Virus record (IMG/VR): IMGVR_UViG_3300033177_000258
Reading direction: 5' to 3' (one strand)
Origin: a virus
Lineage: Duplodnaviria; Caudoviricetes
Length of the DNA: 64,000 nucleotides
Below are positions 14,341 through 53,080 of this stretch, piece after piece (within the stretch, counting starts at the first letter, position 1; each line of letters opens with the position of its first letter). A program made the translations under genes and the position numbers. The notes under the pieces are model-generated. The model saw only the letters and a program-made list of their open reading frames with translations, was not told where the DNA came from and searched no databases.

Positions 14341-15333
14341 ATGGCGCATACTTTGTGGGTCAACCCCGCCATACTGGCTCTCCTCGGGGAGAACACTGAC
14401 GCCCTGAAGGTATTGGCGGATTGGTTCATCATCGAGGAGACGTATCCCAACGGCACCGGCCGGCCCACGTACATGGGCCGCGTGGCCGGAGCAAAGAAGA
14501 CCGGCCTCAACCGCCGTCTCTCGGGCGCCAAGATTGTGCTTCAGGTGGAGAGCGATTCCACCTGGGCGACCCTTGACGGCAACAACACCCCGCGCGACCA
14601 GTACGTGTCGCTCAATGACGTTCGGCGACAGTTGGCCGCGCACAGCATCACCATCGAATTGCCCGAGAGCAAAGCCCCGGTTCGCAAGCTGGACGACGAG
14701 GCCCAGGCGGAGGAGCCTTCCACCGAGCCGCCCCAAGAAGACACTGGGGAGGCCATGGACGACAGCTTCAGGCGCCTGCTCCCCAGCATCACCGAGCACA
14801 CCCTGGTGCTGAGTCTCATTGACGCCATCCAGGACCGCAAAGAGAATCTCTTCGCTCAGCAGCGGATAGCCAAGTATTTCCAGGACTTCCCGGAGCTCAA
14901 CATCGCTCCCGACGAGACGCTGGTCGCGGCATTGATGATTAACGAGCTCACGACCTACCGGCTGCAGCGCGACGTGGCGCAGGGCAAGGATGTCAACCCC
15001 AACCAGATTGCCAAGGCCCAGGAGAACTGGATGAGCGCGGCCATGGCGCTGGGCGTGACCCGCACACAGCGGCTCAAGCAGGGCGACACGCTTGGCTCCT
15101 CTATCGCCGACCTGGCGGCGCAGTATGACGAGCTGCAGCGCCAGGCGCTGAGACAGTTCGAGCGCGACATCGAGGAAGAGAAGCCCATCATCGAGCGGGC
15201 CCGCGAGCGCCAGCAGCGCGAGCTCTCGCCGGGCACGGCGGAAGCGGTCCTGGAAGCCGAGTTCGGTATCCGTGCCGACATTCAGCGTAACGAGTTCGCT
15301 GTGACGGAGGAAGAAGCTGATGCCCCGTCTTAG
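14341..15333 (+). CDS. putative terminase small subunit / packaging-associated protein
   Basis: Directly upstream of and overlapping TerL; helical C-terminal half; call is positional. Confidence 0.45.
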   Translation: MAHTLWVNPAILALLGENTDALKVLADWFIIEETYPNGTGRPTYMGRVAGAKKTGLNRRLSGAKIVLQVESDSTWATLDGNNTPRDQYVSLNDVRRQLAAHSITIELPESKAPVRKLDDEAQAEEPSTEPPQEDTGEAMDDSFRRLLPSITEHTLVLSLIDAIQDRKENLFAQQRIAKYFQDFPELNIAPDETLVAALMINELTTYRLQRDVAQGKDVNPNQIAKAQENWMSAAMALGVTRTQRLKQGDTLGSSIADLAAQYDELQRQALRQFERDIEEEKPIIERARERQQRELSPGTAEAVLEAEFGIRADIQRNEFAVTEEEADAPS

Positions 15334-17005
15334 CCCACTCACCAAGAACGACATTGCTCTGCTGAGGCTGTTCAGAAGCGACCCCGTATTCGCCGGCACC
15401 ATTCTCATCGGCGATGAGTACATGCCGCACCAGCGGTTCTTCTACCGGGACTCGTGGAACAAGACGTTCATCATGAACGCGCGTGGTCGTGGTACCACCA
15501 AGACGTTCGACCTCAGCCGCATGGCCATCCTGGAAGCCATCCTGTACTCGGGCTGGAAGGTCGGCATCGTCGGCCCGTCGTTCCGTCAGGCCAAGTTCGT
15601 CTTCGCCGAAATCGAGCGTGCCATTAACAAGAGCCCGTTCCTGCAGCGCTGCACGATGAGAAACGGCGGCCCATCGAACCTGGCTGACCAGTCCATCTGG
15701 AAGCTCAGGAACGGCAGCATGGTCTTTGCCCTGCCGCTGGGTGATGGCAACAAGATTCGCGGCGCTCGCGCCAACAGCATCCTCATGGACGAGGCGGCGC
15801 AGATTACGCCAGAGGTCATTGACCTGGTTATCAAGCCGCTGGCGGCCACGGCTGCTGACCCGGCTGCCCAAGTGCGCCTGGCGCGCCTGAAGCGATACGA
15901 AGCCGAAATCCGCGAAGCCGGCATTGACTTCGACCGGCTGTCCCGGAGCAACCGCCTCATCCTGTCGTCTTCTGCCTACTACCAGTTCAATCACTTCTAT
16001 GAGAAGTACAAGCAGTACCTGAGGTACACCGCAGAGTTCCTTGAGGATGGCAGCCACAACCCCGAGTACGACCCGGCCTATGGGCTCTACGTGTTCGACT
16101 ACCGCGACCTGCCTGAAGGGTTCATGTCCGCTTCCGTCATCAATGACGCCATGAAGACGATGGGCGTCATCGAGTTCCTGATGGAGTGGTGCGCCTACTT
16201 CCCTGCCGACAGCGACGGCTTCTTCAACGCCAGCCTCATCCAGCAGTGCGTGAACCCGCAACTGTCCGTGCGCCTGGCCCCGGTCCCTGGCCGGCGCTAT
16301 GTGATGGCTGTTGACCCCGCCCGCACGGGTGACTACTTCGCGATTTCGGTGTTCGAAGAAGTCGAGCCCGGCCTGTGGGCCATGGTCTACTGCTTCGCGG
16401 ACAAAGGGCTCAGCACCCCCGTCATGCGCGACATCATCGGGGGCATCGCCGCCAGGTTCAACGTGGCTCACATCTGCATAGATAGAGGAGGCGGTGGCTT
16501 GGCGCTCGTGGACCTGCTCTGCGAGCCGGGGGACAAGGAAGGCTTCATGCCGCCGCTCTCAAACGTGGTGATTCCCTACGGGCAGTTCGGGCTCTTCGAT
16601 GAGGAGAACCCCGGCGACCCCAAGAACATCCTGGACCCGGTGGCGCAAAGCACCGAAGTCAACAAAGAGCTCTACATGGGCCTGAAGAGCGGCCTGGAAA
16701 CTAAGCGCATCCAGTTCGCGGGCAAGGTTGACCCGTTCGTCACCGGGGGCCCTCTACTCGAAGCGGCCGAGCAAGCTCAGGACCACATCATGGCCGCCCA
16801 GCGCGAACTTCGCGCTATCCAGATGAGCGCCAACAACAACGGCACCCTGCATTTCGACACACCGGGCAACCAGCCCAAAGACCGCGCGATAGTGACCTGT
16901 CTGGGGAACTACGCTGCGAAGCGCGTAACTCTGCAAACCACGAGCGAAGGCGACCCCTTGCCGGGTGGCTCAGTCAGTACGGGCGTATTCGGCCAGCGTC
17001 GCTAG
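15320..17005 (+). CDS. terL: terminase large subunit
   Basis: ARGRGTTKT, PSFRQAK, LPLGDGNKIRGARAN, LMDEA (Walker B), RNase H AVDPA..D, IDRGGGG, KDR. Confidence 0.92.
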   Translation: MPRLSPLTKNDIALLRLFRSDPVFAGTILIGDEYMPHQRFFYRDSWNKTFIMNARGRGTTKTFDLSRMAILEAILYSGWKVGIVGPSFRQAKFVFAEIERAINKSPFLQRCTMRNGGPSNLADQSIWKLRNGSMVFALPLGDGNKIRGARANSILMDEAAQITPEVIDLVIKPLAATAADPAAQVRLARLKRYEAEIREAGIDFDRLSRSNRLILSSSAYYQFNHFYEKYKQYLRYTAEFLEDGSHNPEYDPAYGLYVFDYRDLPEGFMSASVINDAMKTMGVIEFLMEWCAYFPADSDGFFNASLIQQCVNPQLSVRLAPVPGRRYVMAVDPARTGDYFAISVFEEVEPGLWAMVYCFADKGLSTPVMRDIIGGIAARFNVAHICIDRGGGGLALVDLLCEPGDKEGFMPPLSNVVIPYGQFGLFDEENPGDPKNILDPVAQSTEVNKELYMGLKSGLETKRIQFAGKVDPFVTGGPLLEAAEQAQDHIMAAQRELRAIQMSANNNGTLHFDTPGNQPKDRAIVTCLGNYAAKRVTLQTTSEGDPLPGGSVSTGVFGQRR

Positions 17006-17014
17006 GAGTCCTTA

Positions 17015-18610
17015 ATGGCGGAAATCATCACAGCCAAGCAGACCGGCCAGGGGCAATTCAAGATGCTCCTGCGGCAGGACGTTCTCGCCGGCCATCGGGA
17101 GTTGGCGATGGGGGGCCAAGGGACCAATCTCTTTGGCGGCAAAGCGCGCGCCGGGCTCTTCGACACCATCAACACCTCATACTCCGGGGGCGGCACCGAC
17201 GCCACCGGCCTGTTCCAGATTCCAATTTCTTCCACTGGCGGCGACCCGTTCTTGGAGTGGCAGAAGCGCTGCGACTATGTGCTGAAGCTCTACTACTGGG
17301 ATGCCGTCGTGGGCACCAGCATTGACACCCTGTGCGACCTCATCTCTGCCGGTTGCCGCGTCGTGCTTTCCGGCAAGGAAGCTACCAACAAGAAGCGCAG
17401 CAGCGGCAATGTCGCCGACTTCTACAACTGGGTGGAGACCATCGGCCTCAACGACCTGATGCGCTGGTCCATCCGCGACCATACCCTGTTCGGCCGCGCC
17501 GTCCCCATCCGCCTGGGCGAGGTAGACGGCAAGAACAGGTTCTACACCCTGTACAACCCCGCCCACTGCGCCGTGCTCGGCGCCCTCAATGTGCAGTTCG
17601 ATGACATGCTTCAGCCCGCACAGGACACCAGCAACATCATCAAGGTGGGCGTGCCGGCCGACGTTCTCAAGCCACAGAACCTCACCTACATGGGCCTGCA
17701 GAACGAGAGCGAGTACAAGCCACCGCCGTGGATGAAGCCGTTCAGCGTGGGGAGCAAGGACTACTACGTCTTCGACCCCAATGTGGTCAACTTCATTGAC
17801 CGCAAGAAGCAACCCTACTCGCGCTACCCCGTGCCGTTCCTGCTGCGCGCCAGCTTCTCGTACCGCACCAAGCGCATCATGCAGCTCATGGACGAAGCGA
17901 CCGCCGAGGACATGGTGAACTGCATCGTGCTGGTCACGGTGGGCAACGACAAGTACCCGGCGAACGTGAAGCAGATTCGCGAAATCCAGCGCGCGTTCGA
18001 GACGGACAAGCGCAGCTTCACCGTGTACTGGAACCACACGCTCAATGTCCAGATGTTGCGCCCACCGGCCGGTGAGATTCTCGGTCGCGACAAGTACGAG
18101 GCCGTCAACGCCGAGCTCTATGCTGGCATCGGCGTCCCCATGTTCCTCGTTGACGCATCGGCGGGCGGGGGCGGCAGCGGCTACAGCAACCAGTGGGTCC
18201 AGGTCGAAGTCCTGTTGCGGCGCCTGGATGTTGCCCGGCTCGAAGTCAAGGCGTTCTGGGAGCGCGAGCTCAACGCCGTAGCCCAGAAGTTCGGCATCAA
18301 GGAACGCGTCCACATCGTGTTCGACAAGGTGGACCTGCGACCACAGGACCGCTTCAAGGCCATCGTACTCGGTCTCCGGCATTTGGGCCTCATCTCGGGC
18401 CAGACAGCGTTGGAAGAGGCGGGCCACGACCCGGCCACGGAAATCGCCCGTCTTGAGGAAGAGCTTGAGTTCCAGAAGAAGGGTCTCTTCATCTCTCAGC
18501 AGACCCAGACCAAGATGGCGCAGGACCCCGGACGGCCGCCGAGCGGCCCCGGCCAGGACTACCCTCCGGGCCGGCAGCCGACAGGCGACCAACCCACTCC
18601 ACAGGCATAA
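17015..18610 (+). CDS. portal protein
   Basis: 531 aa after TerL; RKKQPYSRYPVPF, GLISGQTALEE..E..R..EE, C-terminal GRP. Confidence 0.8.
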   Translation: MAEIITAKQTGQGQFKMLLRQDVLAGHRELAMGGQGTNLFGGKARAGLFDTINTSYSGGGTDATGLFQIPISSTGGDPFLEWQKRCDYVLKLYYWDAVVGTSIDTLCDLISAGCRVVLSGKEATNKKRSSGNVADFYNWVETIGLNDLMRWSIRDHTLFGRAVPIRLGEVDGKNRFYTLYNPAHCAVLGALNVQFDDMLQPAQDTSNIIKVGVPADVLKPQNLTYMGLQNESEYKPPPWMKPFSVGSKDYYVFDPNVVNFIDRKKQPYSRYPVPFLLRASFSYRTKRIMQLMDEATAEDMVNCIVLVTVGNDKYPANVKQIREIQRAFETDKRSFTVYWNHTLNVQMLRPPAGEILGRDKYEAVNAELYAGIGVPMFLVDASAGGGGSGYSNQWVQVEVLLRRLDVARLEVKAFWERELNAVAQKFGIKERVHIVFDKVDLRPQDRFKAIVLGLRHLGLISGQTALEEAGHDPATEIARLEEELEFQKKGLFISQQTQTKMAQDPGRPPSGPGQDYPPGRQPTGDQPTPQA

Positions 18611-18644
18611 GTGGCCGTTCTTGCCTGACACGACCGAGAAATGA

Positions 18645-18655
18645 CGGAATACTTC
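18645..18655 (+). promoter_or_regulatory. putative late promoter motif (2/9)
   Basis: CGGAATACTTC after the portal stop. Confidence 0.75.
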
Positions 18656-18656
18656 C

Positions 18657-18838
18657 ACTGTGGAGTTTGCACCGGATGCGTCTCCGCCTACGGCGCGCGA
18701 AGTCTCAACGAGATTTCGGGTTGGCCCGTACCATAACGGGATGGTGTCGTATGCACCTTGACACTTGAGCGTATCAGGTTGCGACAGAGAAGCGTCTGTC
18801 GCGCAAAACTCTCAGCGTGTGGGCACAATAAAGCCCAA
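18657..18838 (+). ncRNA. unclassified multi-stem structured RNA
   Basis: Nested long-range stems GAGTTTGC/GCAAAACTC and ACCGGATGCG/CGTATCAGGT plus several local hairpins. Confidence 0.55.
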
Positions 18839-18947
18839 AAGTATCCTGGGGTCAAGCTCCAGGTAGTTCCGGGGGGCGCCCGGCAAGTAGCTCGTGAAAG
18901 CGAGAAGTCGCACAAGCGGCAGCGTCACATGTCTTACGTCCTGCACC
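18839..18947 (+). ncRNA. orphan TnpB omegaRNA scaffold plus ~20-nt guide
   Basis: 18839-18927 is a close copy of 24416-24505 with structure-preserving changes; identity stops at GCGTCA. Confidence 0.8.
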
Positions 18948-18973
18948 GAACTTCTTCCAGAAGAGGTCATTTA

Positions 18974-21547
18974 ATGCCCGAAACACAGCAGCACATCAAA
19001 GTGCTATCGGCACCCATTGACCTGACCCCGGTAGTGGCCGACAACTGGACGCAGCTCTACATGAGTTATGTCCTGTGTCATGCGCTGCCGGCCATTAACG
19101 CCAATAGCGATAGCTGGACCCCGGCCACCCTGGCCAACTCATTCAAGTCCGTCATCCACAGCCCGTTCAACATCGAGCACTGGGACACCGACATCGTGGG
19201 CCACACCTACGACGCCGCCCTCATCGAGCAGGACGGGCAGGTCTTCATCGTCGGCGCCGCCGTCATCTACCGCGACATCTTCTACTGCCTCGCGCACGAC
19301 CTGCAGAACAACGAGGAAGAGGGCAACAACTGGCGCGTCAGCATGGAGTGCTACTTCGATAAGGTGGCGCTCTCCTACAAGGGGCGCACGTACACCGAGA
19401 AGAGTGAACGCTGGAAAGAGCTCTCACCCTACATGGGCGCGCTCTACGACGGCAAGCCCGTCGTGCGGCTCCTCGGTGGTGCGGAGGATGACTCTCGCGT
19501 CTTCTTCAGCGGCGCCGCGCTGGTCAAGGTCCCCGCCGACACGAACGCGCGCATCCTCTCCGTCAAGTACGTTGACAACGATGGCAAGGCCGCCGAGAAG
19601 ACCTACGACGCATCGGTGGCGTCCCGCATCATCCGCGTCTCGCCCGAGCCGGTTGTCTTGTCGCGCGGCAGTCTGGCTACGGCTAGCGATGTCTCCCGTC
19701 GCATCGAAGAGTTGCGCGAGACCGTGGCCGAGCGCCGCGCCGCGAACTCCATTTCCAACATCTGCCCCCTCAGCTACGGGGACTGCGCCATGGCGAAGCC
19801 GAGCGCGGACGGCCTGGCCTGCCTGAACTTCGACCCCGTGTCGGCGACTTGCAGCAACTACGACCCCGGCACCGAACCACTGGATATAACCCCCATCGTG
19901 GATGTCATCGAGCAGCAGAGTTCCGTCAGCCCCGAGCCGGCTGAGGGGTCTGCTTTGTCGGGCTTCGAGAACGACCTGTACAAGCTGCAGGTATCCGAGA
20001 CGGACGCCGGCGTCATTCTCCAAGTCCTCATCAAGAACCCGGACGGCTCCTGGTCCGAGCACGAAAGCAACACCGTCCCACACGACATCGCAGGACAGCG
20101 CATCGAAGAGTGGGTCACGGTACTAGCTGACGGCCTGGACGATGTAGGCGAACTGGTTGGCGAGCTCGATGAAGCGATGGCGGCCGAAGCCGGCATGTTC
20201 ATCATCAGCGACAGCACTGACGCAGCCGTATGGACGCAGAAGTACGTCAACGACCTTCCTGACGCGGCTTTCGCCGGTCTCCTGCCGGGCGGCAAGAAGG
20301 ACGAGGGCGGCAACACTGCTCCCCGCGCCAAGCGGAAGCTCCCCCATCATGATGCTTCGGTCAAGAAGTCCGACGAGAATGGCAGTGTGGGCCTTGCCCC
20401 TCTGCGCAACGCGTTGGCGCGTCTGCCGATGACGCAGTGCCCGAGCAGCATGAAGAAGCGCATGAAGTCGCACCTCGCTGCACACGCTAAGGTGTTGCTC
20501 AAGGGCGATAGTGGCAAAAGTTCTCTGACACAGGCCACAGATACACGGAATACTTCTGACACGAGAGGTGACACGGCAATGCCTATGACCACTGAAGACT
20601 TCAAGCAGATGCTCGACGAGAGCGTCGCCACCGCTATCAAGCCCATCGGCGACAAGCTCGAAACCTTCGCCAGCGGACTCGGCGAGGTCCAGGAAGAGCT
20701 CAAGTCGCGCGGCAGCCAGCTCGACGGACTGCTGACCGCCCAGCGCACCGAGACCCGCCTGGCCCAGCTCGACCCGCTCCCGATTACGGACGATGTGCGC
20801 GCCCTGGCCAACGACATGAGCGACGAGATGTGGGGCAAGTACGTCGCTTCATCCCAGCCGTTCATCCAGGCCGCGAAGGACGCCGCCGCAGCCGCCCAGG
20901 CCGAGACGGAGACCGCCCAGGCCGAGACGGAGACCGCCCAGGCCGAGACTGAGACCCAGACCGAGACGCCCGCCGATGGCGGCGAAGCCCAGGCCCAGGC
21001 CCAGACCGAGACCCAGAACGAGACCCCCGCTGAGGGCGGCGAGGCCCAGGCCGAGACTGAGACCCAGACCGAGACGCCCGCCGATGGCGGCGAAGCCCAG
21101 GCCCAGACCGAGACCCAGACCGAGACCCAGACCGAGACCCCCGCTGAGGGCGGCGAGGCCCAGGCCGAGACTGAGACCCAGACCGAGACGCCCGCCGATG
21201 GCGGCGAAGCCCAGGCCCAGGCCGAGACCCAGACCGAGACCCTCGCTGAGGGTGGCGAGGCCCAGGCCGAGACCGAGACGCAGGACGAGGAAGCCAGCGC
21301 CCAGACCGAAGGTGGCGAAGGCGGCGAGGCTCAGGCCTCCCAGCAGCAGCCACCGGCCGGCGCCCAACTCCCCGTGACCAGCGGCGGCGGCGGCAGCGCG
21401 CAGAGCATGTTCGTCTTCCGTGGCCCTGGCGGCGAGACCGCTGCGGGCGGCTCAGTCGGCGAAGTGTCCGCGAAGGGTAGCTACGAGGCCCTGACCCAGG
21501 GCTACCAGAAGCTGTGGCACGAGCAGCTCAAGTCGTCCGACGAGTAG
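18974..21547 (+). CDS. prohead protease-scaffold fusion (with a DUF6582-like segment)
   Basis: ATG 18974 after AAGAGGT; NIEH..IVGH, VSMECYF, FSGAALV..PA; LPDAAFA..RKLPHHD..LRNALAR; acidic repetitive C-terminus. Confidence 0.75.
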   Translation: MPETQQHIKVLSAPIDLTPVVADNWTQLYMSYVLCHALPAINANSDSWTPATLANSFKSVIHSPFNIEHWDTDIVGHTYDAALIEQDGQVFIVGAAVIYRDIFYCLAHDLQNNEEEGNNWRVSMECYFDKVALSYKGRTYTEKSERWKELSPYMGALYDGKPVVRLLGGAEDDSRVFFSGAALVKVPADTNARILSVKYVDNDGKAAEKTYDASVASRIIRVSPEPVVLSRGSLATASDVSRRIEELRETVAERRAANSISNICPLSYGDCAMAKPSADGLACLNFDPVSATCSNYDPGTEPLDITPIVDVIEQQSSVSPEPAEGSALSGFENDLYKLQVSETDAGVILQVLIKNPDGSWSEHESNTVPHDIAGQRIEEWVTVLADGLDDVGELVGELDEAMAAEAGMFIISDSTDAAVWTQKYVNDLPDAAFAGLLPGGKKDEGGNTAPRAKRKLPHHDASVKKSDENGSVGLAPLRNALARLPMTQCPSSMKKRMKSHLAAHAKVLLKGDSGKSSLTQATDTRNTSDTRGDTAMPMTTEDFKQMLDESVATAIKPIGDKLETFASGLGEVQEELKSRGSQLDGLLTAQRTETRLAQLDPLPITDDVRALANDMSDEMWGKYVASSQPFIQAAKDAAAAAQAETETAQAETETAQAETETQTETPADGGEAQAQAQTETQNETPAEGGEAQAETETQTETPADGGEAQAQTETQTETQTETPAEGGEAQAETETQTETPADGGEAQAQAETQTETLAEGGEAQAETETQDEEASAQTEGGEGGEAQASQQQPPAGAQLPVTSGGGGSAQSMFVFRGPGGETAAGGSVGEVSAKGSYEALTQGYQKLWHEQLKSSDE
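20546..20556 (+). promoter_or_regulatory. putative late promoter motif (3/9), intragenic
   Basis: CGGAATACTTC followed by GAGAGGTG RBS and an in-frame ATG at 20579. Confidence 0.7.
20579..21547 (+). CDS. nested in-frame scaffolding protein (322 aa)
   Basis: Own promoter motif, RBS and ATG inside the protease gene; coiled-coil then acidic repeats. Confidence 0.65.
   Translation: MPMTTEDFKQMLDESVATAIKPIGDKLETFASGLGEVQEELKSRGSQLDGLLTAQRTETRLAQLDPLPITDDVRALANDMSDEMWGKYVASSQPFIQAAKDAAAAAQAETETAQAETETAQAETETQTETPADGGEAQAQAQTETQNETPAEGGEAQAETETQTETPADGGEAQAQTETQTETQTETPAEGGEAQAETETQTETPADGGEAQAQAETQTETLAEGGEAQAETETQDEEASAQTEGGEGGEAQASQQQPPAGAQLPVTSGGGGSAQSMFVFRGPGGETAAGGSVGEVSAKGSYEALTQGYQKLWHEQLKSSDE
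20894..21283 (+). repeat. coding tandem repeats (AQAETET / TETPA[DE]GGEAQA)
   Basis: GCCCAGGCCGAGAC..GAGACCCAGACC units repeated. Confidence 0.9.
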
Positions 21548-23174: not shown

Positions 23175-23204
23175 TTAGCCACGAGCCAGACAGCAGGATA
23201 GGAG

Positions 23205-23233
23205 AGGGGGCGTCGCGAGGCGCCCCCTTTTTT
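23205..23233 (+). terminator. intrinsic terminator
   Basis: AGGGGGCGTC-GCGA-GGCGCCCCCT then T-run. Confidence 0.85.
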
Positions 23234-23263: not shown

Positions 23264-23272
23264 AAGTACCAA

Positions 23273-23328
23273 TGCCAACCGCTTACAGGTCTGTAACCAT
23301 TGCCAACCGCTTACAGGTCTGTAACCAT
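23273..23328 (+). repeat. perfect 28-bp tandem duplication at tnpB start
   Basis: TGCCAACCGCTTACAGGTCTGTAACCAT x2. Confidence 0.95.
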
Positions 23329-24493
23329 TGACTGGCTCCCCCGCTCGCAGGCCGAGTGGGCTACATTCACGGCTGCCCGCCGTGAAGCTGGCCGACTCTG
23401 GTCCGACTTGGTAGAGCGCCATCTGCGCATCCGTCGCCGCCAACTCAAGTGGCCGTCAGAAAAGCGCTGGCGCAAATGGGCCAAAGGCAAGTACCCCAAT
23501 CTCCATAGCCAGTCCGTGCAACTAATCATATCCGAGTTCTGCGAAGCACTTGCTTCGGCAGCTACCCTGCGCCGCAATGGGCACCCAGAGGCCAACTACC
23601 CACATAAGCCTCGTGAGTTCCATGGGGTCCCGCATACGAACCAGGGCGCGGTGGTGCGGGATGCCAACTTGCGGTTGTCCAATGGTTCTGCCGGCTATCT
23701 CTACATCCCGCTCCCGCGTACCATTGTTCTTCCTGGCCGACTTATGGAGGCCAGACTCACCTATGGTGCAGTAATCTTGGTCTGCCAATGTGAAGCCCAG
23801 ATTACCCCGACCGGCCCCATTCTCGGCATAGACCTCGGCGTCAATACGCTCCTCGCCGCCACAGATGGCCAGACCGCAGTTCTCGTCTCGGGTCGCGAAG
23901 CAAAAGCCACAGTCCAATGGCGCGCTAAGCGTCTGGCGTCTCTCCGCAGTAAGCAGTCCAACTGTCACCGGGGCTCCCGTCAGTATGGCCGGCTCCAGCG
24001 CCGCAAGCATAAGCTGCTGAAGAAGTCTGAGAACCGAGTCAAAGACCTCACTCACAAGGCTACGCGCACGATTGCGGACGCGTTCCCAGGAGCTAAGTGT
24101 TACGTCGGCGAGCCGTTCAATGACGCCGCTCAGAAGCTCGGCAGACGCCAGGCTCAACAGGTTTCAGAAGCCTGCAATTCTCGCATTATTACGCAACTCG
24201 ACTACAAGACGGCCGGTGCCATTACGGTAGGCGAGGCGTATAGTTCCCAAACGTGTCCCGTTTGCGGAACTCGGAACAAGTGTCGGCGAACCTACCGCTG
24301 TTGTGACTGCGGCTTTACTGCCCATCGTGACGTGGTGGGTTCCGCCAACATCCGCTGCATCGGGATGCGCGGCGAGCTTGTTCCAGGCTGTGACGTGCCT
24401 AACGTCTGGACCTACAAGTATCCTGGGGTCATCGCTCCAGGTAGTTCCGGGGGACGCCCGGCATGTAGCTCGCGCAAGCGAGAAGCCGCTTAG
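23300..24493 (+). CDS. tnpB: TnpB RNA-guided endonuclease (IS200/IS605 family)
   Basis: RuvC-I GIDLG, RuvC-II YVGEP, SSQTCPVCG..CCDCG zinc ribbon, RuvC-III HRDVVGSANI; original ATG 23272 is out of frame because of the duplication. Confidence 0.92.
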   Translation: MPTAYRSVTIDWLPRSQAEWATFTAARREAGRLWSDLVERHLRIRRRQLKWPSEKRWRKWAKGKYPNLHSQSVQLIISEFCEALASAATLRRNGHPEANYPHKPREFHGVPHTNQGAVVRDANLRLSNGSAGYLYIPLPRTIVLPGRLMEARLTYGAVILVCQCEAQITPTGPILGIDLGVNTLLAATDGQTAVLVSGREAKATVQWRAKRLASLRSKQSNCHRGSRQYGRLQRRKHKLLKKSENRVKDLTHKATRTIADAFPGAKCYVGEPFNDAAQKLGRRQAQQVSEACNSRIITQLDYKTAGAITVGEAYSSQTCPVCGTRNKCRRTYRCCDCGFTAHRDVVGSANIRCIGMRGELVPGCDVPNVWTYKYPGVIAPGSSGGRPACSSRKREAA

Positions 24494-24526
24494 GCGGTAG
24501 CGTCAAGACGCCCCCGCTTCTCTATC
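24416..24526 (+). ncRNA. omegaRNA overlapping tnpB 3' end plus 21-nt guide/flank
   Basis: Hairpins CCTGGGG/CTCCAGG, CTCGC-GCAA-GCGAG, GCCGC-TTAG-GCGGT; loop GACGC can pair with terminal GCGTC. Confidence 0.8.
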
Positions 24527-30222: not shown

Positions 30223-30434
30223 CTATCTGGAAATGGTGTATGGCAAGGCACCCCCTGGTGGGGTAACGGCTATCAAACCCATTTGTTACGCCGCTTCCTT
30301 CGCTGACGGAATCTACCGTCAGGGCTACTCGCGGTCTAGCCATACGTACCGGCGCACAGCCAGGTACGAGCTGGTTCCATACAGCGGGCCGCCTCTGCCT
30401 CTGTGCTTCATTCTCGGAAGGCTTTTCCTTCCAA
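30223..30434 (+). ncRNA. structured leader / unclassified RNA
   Basis: GTATGGC-A-AGGC/GTCT-A-GCCATAC long-range stem; hairpins CTGACGG/CCGTCAG, CGTACC/GGTACG, GCTG/CAGC, GGAAGG/CCTTCC. Confidence 0.5.
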
Positions 30435-52795: not shown

Positions 52796-52811
52796 GAAGA
52801 CGACGGCGACG

Positions 52812-53012
52812 GTAGACCCGCGCGGGACGAGCCAGAAATGCTCGCGGTGCGGACACGTCGCGCGGGGCAACCGCGTGAGCCAGTCCGAGTTCCGGTGCCA
52901 GAAGTGCGGGTTCCGAATCAACGCCGACCTCAATGCGGGACGGAATGTGAAGGGGAAGTACCTGGTCCGAGAGGGCAGCGCCGTCTCGGGCGGGCCGCGT
53001 CAACCGGCCTAA
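52812..53012 (+). pseudogene. tnpB: 3'-terminal tnpB fragment (zinc ribbon + RuvC-III)
   Basis: Unlisted frame reads VDPRGTSQKCSRCGH..FRCQKCGFRINADLNAGRNV..RQPA*; no start codon. Confidence 0.85.
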
Positions 53013-53080
53013 AGCAGCGTGTTGTTTGCGGCTGCAAGCTGCCTTCGGGTAGTGGTTGAACAACCCCGTATTTGCCGGAT
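52958..53080 (+). ncRNA. second-family omegaRNA scaffold plus guide
   Basis: GGCCG-CGTCAAC-CGGCC, GCAGC/GCTGC, GCTGCC-TTCG-GGTAGT; TCAACC complementary to terminal GGTTGA (~53059). Confidence 0.65.

Follow-up and report, generated by a model that had tools for sequence, protein, structure and literature searches.

The window analysed in this study is a 64,000-nt stretch of the IMG/VR virus record IMGVR_UViG_3300033177_000258 (Duplodnaviria; Caudoviricetes). At positions 18840 to 18928 of its + strand lies an 89-nt element that, judged by its sequence, is a full-length omegaRNA 3' module without tnpB in cis. Cas12 evolved from TnpB, whose known role is to maintain its own transposon at its site. 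Directly behind the scaffold of this orphan omegaRNA we found a putative guide that resembles, apart from three silent differences, a segment of the next gene downstream, an 857-aa head gene. We favour the reading that the element is a guide cassette that functions now or did so until recently. Our proposal is that it acts in trans as a TnpB guide cassette for RNA-guided homing or competitor exclusion, the phage's own gene being protected by recoding, and we give this proposal a little less than an even chance. The window belongs to a large phage that is uncultured: the region is identical on contigs of 132 kb and 32 kb, proteins of the phage were found on contigs of up to 215 kb, and the genome spans at least 195 kb. 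No close DNA relatives of the phage were found in the phage collection.

To define the orphan, we used a covariance model (R1) derived from 31 tnpB-linked copies alone, the orphan being excluded. The model aligned to 18840-18928 over its full length (model positions 1 to 109) and scored the orphan at 66.4 bits, compared with 71.2 and 68.5 bits for the two tnpB-linked copies of the phage. Stem 1, stem 2 with its pseudoknot loop, stems 3 and 4, and the terminal GCGUCAC were all recognized in the orphan. For comparison we took the tnpB-linked omegaRNA module at 24417-24506 (+ strand), which consists of the last 76 nt of the tnpB-1 gene and the 14 nt past its end, and whose own guide starts at 24506/24507. 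The two modules differ by 10 substitutions and one 1-nt deletion (88% identity; nhmmer E = 8e-15), a match far beyond chance. With the filters of the covariance model switched off, no further copy was detected in the window; the scaffold patterns had no match in IMG/VR or in the metagenome collection, and no Rfam family matched anywhere in the window. The orphan scaffold as such is not new, because protein-less omegaRNA elements resembling palindrome-associated transposable elements (PATEs) are known, two of them in the same RNA family.

The family gave a structure against which the orphan could be judged. Hundreds of relatives share about 55-65% identity with TnpB-1, most of them from metagenome bins of Chloroflexota, and the 3' ends of the 31 tnpB-linked copies align as one RNA ending in GTCAC. 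Stem 2 of this RNA has 4 bp, and its 7-nt loop pairs with the last five bases of the scaffold, forming a pseudoknot. Across the alignment, 94.9% of the cells were paired and double changes occurred in 19 of 26 pairs; none of 500 shuffles, and no slid register, approached these values. The pseudoknot cells were 100% paired and covaried (GGACAC/GUGUC, GGAACC/GGUUC, GGACGC/GCGUC). A preliminary description of this DNA had proposed a pseudoknot between this loop and the terminal GCGTC, and had named covariation in a family alignment as the check; the alignment bears out the pseudoknot, and the stems covary strongly as well. It had also placed the boundary between scaffold and guide at GCGTCA, where the similarity of the two modules ends sharply. 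The sharp end is there, and the boundary probably lies one base later, at GCGTCAC, because GTCAC is conserved across the family.

We then compared the substitutions with the structure. The differences between orphan and linked copy that had been named earlier were present in the DNA: CTCGT-GAAA-GCGAG versus CTCGC-GCAA-GCGAG, GTCGC-ACAA-GCGGC versus GCCGC-TTAG-GCGGT, and the loop GGCGC versus GACGC. Four of the 10 substitutions fall in paired positions, where pairing is kept by G-U or G-C, and the other six, together with the deletion, lie in loops or linkers. In agreement with the earlier claim, none of the 26 pairs is broken. A simulation with the observed mix of transitions and transversions gave P = 0.0045 for this outcome, the structure used in the test having been taken from the family covariation and being independent of the orphan. 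The A-to-G change in the pseudoknot loop, which leaves a G-U pair, also occurs in a tnpB-linked bacterial copy (L009). An unrooted three-way comparison with the paralogue L064 assigned 8 substitutions and the indel to the orphan side. The deletion, in loop 1, shifts the old TnpB frame, and two substitutions create a TGA; the frameshift and the TGA break the TnpB C-terminus and spare the RNA, which indicates that they arose without coding constraint. These observations make selection on the orphan RNA structure after the loss of tnpB likely, and the earlier preference for selection over decay is upheld to that extent, with the reservation that some of the divergence may predate orphaning.

We also looked for a tnpB remnant 5' of the module by blastx, by a six-frame search with a TnpB profile HMM (hidden Markov model) and by DNA alignment. 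These searches recovered only the last ~30 codons, which overlap the RNA and are broken in frame, consistent with the earlier statement that no coding remnant precedes the module. A 35-nt likeness of 18773-18807 to tnpB codons ~48-60 was rejected (p = 0.04 under one scoring scheme, 0.22 under another).

The guide position is occupied by the 15 nt ATGTCTTACGTCCTG (18929-18943, + strand), which directly follow the conserved terminus GTCAC. Of its 15 positions, 12 are identical to 19061-19075, a site that begins 132 nt further on, inside the next gene. The resemblance breaks off at nucleotide 15-16, in keeping with the natural length of the guide in the ISDra2 reRNA (PMC8612924). The near-cognate target, ATGAGTTATGTCCTG, covers codons M30 to L34 of the 857-aa gene and is preceded on the same + strand by CTAC (19057-19060; codons L28-Y29), which resembles a target-adjacent motif (TAM). 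We derived CTAC independently as the putative TAM from the outer edge of the left-end homology: of 12 independent insertions examined in two bacterial genomes, two tnpB-less miniature elements among them, 10 had CTAC there. Among about 1,200 YTAY sites in the window, the site at 19057 is the only one followed by at least 11 matches out of 15; the expected number of TAM-flanked sites with 12 matches out of 15 is about 0.015 per window.

The mismatches, at guide positions 4, 5 and 9, are all synonymous: Ser is spelled TCT in the guide and AGT in the gene, and Tyr TAC in the guide and TAT in the gene. When three mismatches were drawn at random, 1.0% of trials gave silent changes only. Among the Ser codons used here, AGT is the least frequent (6%), and this TAT is the sole one among the 19 Tyr codons of the gene; relatives have TCC TAC and TCC TAT at the same codons, so that guide and relatives share TCY followed by TAC or TAT. 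Since the guide is untranslated and the differences keep the peptide, the changes arose in the gene, or else the guide copies another allele. The silent differences thus point to escape of the resident gene from the guide, and a TAM-flanked, synonymously mismatched target in the very next gene suggests present or recent function.

The orphan module lies within the ~314-nt leader of the 857-aa gene, and the whole leader folds with z = -3.3. The motif CGGAATACTTC occurs in nine exact copies in the window, all on the + strand (14301, 18645, 20546, 23253, 24528, 27343, 30212, 62837 and 63632), where 0.44 are expected. Eight of the nine copies stand ahead of genes, and the copy at 20546 falls within the frame 18974-21547; at 62837 and 63632 there is almost no leader between motif and gene. 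CGGAATACTTC is probably a phage-specific promoter with the -10 element AATACT. A consensus scan placed a promoter-like site, CTGACA-17-AATACT, at 18625-18653 (+ strand), overlapping the motif copy at 18645-18655. This site would transcribe the whole leader, including the orphan RNA.

The 363-nt gap between the 531-aa and 857-aa genes, which holds the orphan, was compared with the same gap in three related phages, whose 531-aa proteins are 69%, 59% and 51% identical. There the gap measures 77, 65 and 53 nt. In L067 and L068, the two relatives with readable DNA, the motif CGGAATACTTC sits at the equivalent position, and the gap contains this promoter motif and a ~30-nt leader. The extra DNA in the window amounts to about 280 nt, roughly 18666-18943, and by this comparison the insert that carries the orphan module is lineage-specific. 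Behind the guide, at 18944-18973 (+ strand), lies the native 5' untranslated region (UTR) with the ribosome-binding site AAGAGGTCA, which roughly aligns to the short UTRs of L067 and L068; the same ribosome-binding context recurs ahead of the gene at 30403.

The 5' part of the insert (184 nt, 18656-18839, + strand) is structured and absent from the relatives. Comparisons with tnpB, with the first part of the downstream gene, with bacterial left ends and with the other long leader revealed no resemblance. A decayed duplicate of the UTR and first 29 codons of the downstream gene was rejected, there being no DNA or protein likeness; a likeness to the tape-measure leader was rejected too, only the ribosome-binding site being common to the two leaders; and a TGCACCG direct repeat flanking the insert (18669 and 18942) is no evidence, as about 2.7 such 7-mers are expected by chance.

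The nearest tnpB is tnpB-1 (23300-24493, + strand; 397 aa), 4.4 kb from the orphan cassette. Its product matches Pfam OrfB_IS605 and Cas12f1-like_TNB and aligns with the ISDra2 TnpB structures, and it is the likely protein partner of the orphan RNA in trans. D178 and D344 of TnpB-1 align with D191 and D361 of ISDra2 TnpB, and D178, E312 and D344 are invariant in the family. Glu312, just before the zinc finger in the family alignment, suggests a rearranged RuvC-II active site; branches with a rearranged RuvC-II site have been described, some of them in viruses (PMC10691335). The tnpB-1 gene stands 8 nt behind a copy of CGGAATACTTC, which leaves no room for a left end. Two TnpA proteins from hosts of the family were used as tblastn queries on the window plus L064, together 85 kb of the at least 195 kb that the genome spans, and nothing below E = 0.08 was returned. 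Classical IS200/IS605 transposition is unlikely as the mode of spread, because no tnpA was seen in the searched phage DNA and tnpB-1 has no room for a left end.

Several further observations concern tnpB-1 and its relatives in this phage. The guide of tnpB-1, GACGCCCCCGCTTCT (24506-24525), is the complement of the left arm of the terminator that precedes the gene (23197-23232), and it had no match other than the opposite arm of that hairpin. The sequence CGGAATACTTCA stands on both sides of the tnpB-1 cassette, as if the cassette had been placed in a terminator-promoter junction and supplied replacements for both. A second tnpB locus, a stub at 52796-53059 inside the tail operon, keeps ~66 C-terminal codons (zinc finger and RuvC-III) and has no start codon; behind it comes another type of scaffold, which terminates in GGTTGAAC. 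The paralogous tnpB at L064 (10001-11046) is 75% identical to tnpB-1 and has lost ~85 N-terminal residues, and its omegaRNA is almost identical. The right-end TCA of L064 doubles as the stop codon (TGA) of an SNF2 helicase gene that runs convergently, and the guide region encodes the last residues of that gene, RKTNG, before the stop; RKTNV recurs in frame 870 nt away (14/16 nt), without CTAC.

TnpB homing at empty transposon sites is established, and in phages intronless homing by protein endonucleases is classical (PMC13565253). For the phage studied here we propose the following route. The cassette would be transcribed from the phage promoter at 18645, within the leader of the 857-aa head gene, and its 89-nt module, as the comparison showed, folds like the tnpB-linked omegaRNAs of the family. 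TnpB from tnpB-1 would bind the orphan RNA in trans and process it to the scaffold and a guide of ~15-16 nt. Such a guide would specify CTAC followed by ATGTCTTACGTCCTG, a sequence that is an alternative synonymous spelling of codons 28-34, and would direct cleavage there. The resident gene keeps CTAC and should nevertheless escape cutting because of the three silent mismatches at guide positions 4, 5 and 9. If a relative that spells the site without the recoding entered the same cell, its copy would be cleaved, and that relative would then be lost or repaired from the resident genome; repair would copy in the recoded site together with the cassette 132 nt away. By analogy, this layout would work as free-standing homing endonucleases do, except that an RNA would supply the specificity. 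We also consider it possible, at somewhat less than an even chance, that the cassette forms half of a natural two-part RNA-guided gene drive acting among phages. A protein-free guide cassette and a TnpB encoded elsewhere in the genome would together cut the unrecoded allele of an essential head gene in co-infecting relatives, the cassette would be copied in during repair along with silent 'immunity' changes, and several such cassettes per genome would make up a dispersed, CRISPR-like but non-adaptive guide set that serves phage-phage competition.

A number of findings weigh against the proposed homing cassette. A perfect (unrecoded) target was not found: the searches returned one IMG/VR match (L070) and one metagenome match (L071), neither from relatives of the phage. 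The nearest relative, L067, has GTAC and three mismatches at the site (12/15 matches), L068 is less similar to the guide than L067, and no relative carries the cognate allele. The proposal does not account for the arrival behind the scaffold of 15 nt copied from a site at a distance of 132 nt, nor for the source of the 184-nt 5' part of the insert. L065 and L066 are identical to the window, and all cassette-bearing phage contigs are alike, so that they offer no population variation. The guide of the second stub (52796-53059) shows no match above background within 3 kb, and the result for the L064 guide is ambiguous (a 14/16 in-frame match, RKTN, 870 nt away, with no TAM).

The presumed protein partner raises two further points on the same side. 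A 28-nt tandem duplication at the start of tnpB-1 (23268-23323) puts the ATG out of frame: the ATG at 23272 opens a 20-codon out-of-frame peptide, and the start of TnpB would be a TTG at 23300 with no clear ribosome-binding site. Contig L063, which is 98% identical, has a single copy of the 28-nt unit and a normal ATG start. The TnpB family also lacks the canonical RuvC-II Glu, as YVGKP aligns with GTEHL of ISDra2, and nuclease activity of TnpB-1 is assumed from Glu312.

The main rival is that the cassette is an inactive relic, in which the right end and guide are what remains of a TnpB/omegaRNA element or of a homing event in the past and the likeness to the neighbouring gene records history; we regard this as somewhat unlikely, though it is the alternative to be taken most seriously. 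The scaffold would then look intact as the loss was recent, or as the divergence arose while tnpB was still attached, and part of the 11% divergence could indeed predate orphaning. The phage does present a decay series, from tnpB-1 with its disturbed start, through the 5'-truncated L064 with intact RNA and the 66-codon stub at 52796-53059, to the RNA-only copy. That the searches found no cognate target in nature fits a relic as well, and tnpB-1 may be poorly translated in this variant. Yet the flanking 184 nt hold no trace of tnpB, while the 89-nt module keeps 88% identity and every pair, and the frameshifting indel and the TGA, having arisen without coding constraint, still spare the RNA. The rare-codon silent changes, moreover, sit in the gene and not in the untranslated guide, which argues for selection to escape the guide.

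Two other explanations place the function, or the mobility, elsewhere. The module might act in cis as a leader element, with TnpB binding or cutting of the scaffold adjusting how stable the head-gene mRNA is or how well it is translated, while the guide would be incidental. Its position in the ~314-nt leader, behind the promoter and 33 nt ahead of a ribosome-binding site, would suit such a role, and TnpB is known to turn its own mRNA into omegaRNA (PMC10278001). We consider this improbable, for it leaves the TAM-flanked, synonymously mismatched target in the gene unexplained, and relatives express the same gene from a 30-nt leader. More improbable still is a PATE-like non-autonomous IS200/IS605 element, made of a left and a right end without a gene and moved by a host TnpA, the guide being flanking DNA. 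Such elements have been described (PMC10055086), and a Chloroflexia genome carries two tnpB-less miniature elements of the same RNA family amid many Y1 TnpA genes. These two, L073 (G003:C15:60319-60437) and L074 (G003:C11:69447-69569), both on the minus strand, comprise CTAC, a shared left part of ~270 nt and a full omegaRNA module scoring 88 and 85 bits, respectively. When 18656-18839 was compared with their left ends, however, p was 0.5-0.98; there was no likeness to the left ends of the G001 copies either, and only short CTAC/GTAC words are present. No tnpA was found in the searched phage DNA, and the guide is not an arbitrary flank: it reproduces part of a gene at a distance of 132 nt, and the likeness is limited to 15-16 nt.

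The remaining genes give the setting of the proposed guide cassette. Upstream lie a terminase gene (15320-17005; Pfam Terminase_6C) and the 531-aa gene (17015-18610), which we call portal-like by its position only. The 857-aa head gene follows the cassette (18974-21547, + strand) and has no Pfam match; beyond it come tnpB-1 and then further head and tail genes. Within the 857-aa gene, an internal in-frame ATG (20579) stands behind its own promoter motif (20546) and ahead of tandem repeats at 20883-21340, and this internal start (20546-20579) looks like that of a nested scaffold-type product. At the end of the window, a gene at 63648-63998 opens 5 nt behind a copy of CGGAATACTTC (MKTTLKLKLLPSADQ...), and its 117 residues had no Pfam match.

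To our knowledge, stand-alone omegaRNAs occur in bacteria and their targets are mostly unknown. In the phage, the target can be read from the sequence: a TAM-flanked site in an adjacent essential gene, of which the phage's copy is silently rewritten with rare codons. In the literature searched, we found no paper on a guide-only cassette in a phage whose target is a neighbouring gene with silent recoding. Activity of the cassette would mean that RNA-guided nucleases take the role of free-standing homing endonucleases in phage-phage competition and that guide and nuclease can each spread selfishly on their own. The arrangement would then be a plausible step between transposon nucleases with one guide and CRISPR systems with many. 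The analysis also yields a testable TAM (CTAC), guide and scaffold for a compact TnpB family with an apparently rearranged RuvC-II site.

Among known systems, the orphan resembles in build the omegaRNA of ISDra2, the reRNA (right-element RNA), which carries about 16 nt of guide (Karvelis 2021, PMC8612924). As in ISDra2, the scaffold derives from the tnpB 3' end and the right end, a pseudoknot lies beside the guide, a ~16-nt guide would follow the element terminus, and the target would need a 5' TAM (PMC8612924). Unlike the reRNA, the orphan lacks both a left end and a tnpB in cis, no tnpA was seen in the phage DNA searched, and a predicted phage promoter would drive the cassette; its putative guide is a silent-variant copy of a nearby coding segment, not the flank of an empty site. 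PATE-like protein-less IS200/IS605 elements encode omegaRNAs used in trans (Meers 2023, PMC10055086). The orphan resembles these elements, and L073 and L074, in being a gene-less unit with a complete guide-RNA scaffold and a TnpB encoded elsewhere. L073 and L074, in contrast, have a left end behind CTAC and lie in TnpA-rich genomes, neither of which was seen for the phage copy, whose own genome carries the mismatched target.

A further parallel is offered by TldR proteins, nuclease-dead TnpB relatives that act as RNA-guided repressors (PMC10705468). Both cases would combine a transposon-free TnpB-type protein with a gene-specific guide, and the canonical RuvC-II Glu is absent from the phage family too. 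Unlike TldR, this TnpB family keeps D178, E312 and D344 and is present in bacteria in multiple copies with transposon ends, and the three TAM-proximal mismatches argue against binding at the resident gene. In T-even phages, the free-standing homing endonucleases SegF, SegG and Mob bring about intronless homing and marker exclusion (PMC13565253). Here as there, the cassette lies between conserved genes, the predicted target is in a neighbouring gene, and the resident allele differs by substitutions from the sequence that would be recognized; co-conversion or exclusion in mixed infection would be the expected outcome. What would set the phage apart from T-even homing is a 15-nt RNA guide and a TAM in place of protein-DNA contacts, with the guide and nuclease loci 4.4 kb apart.
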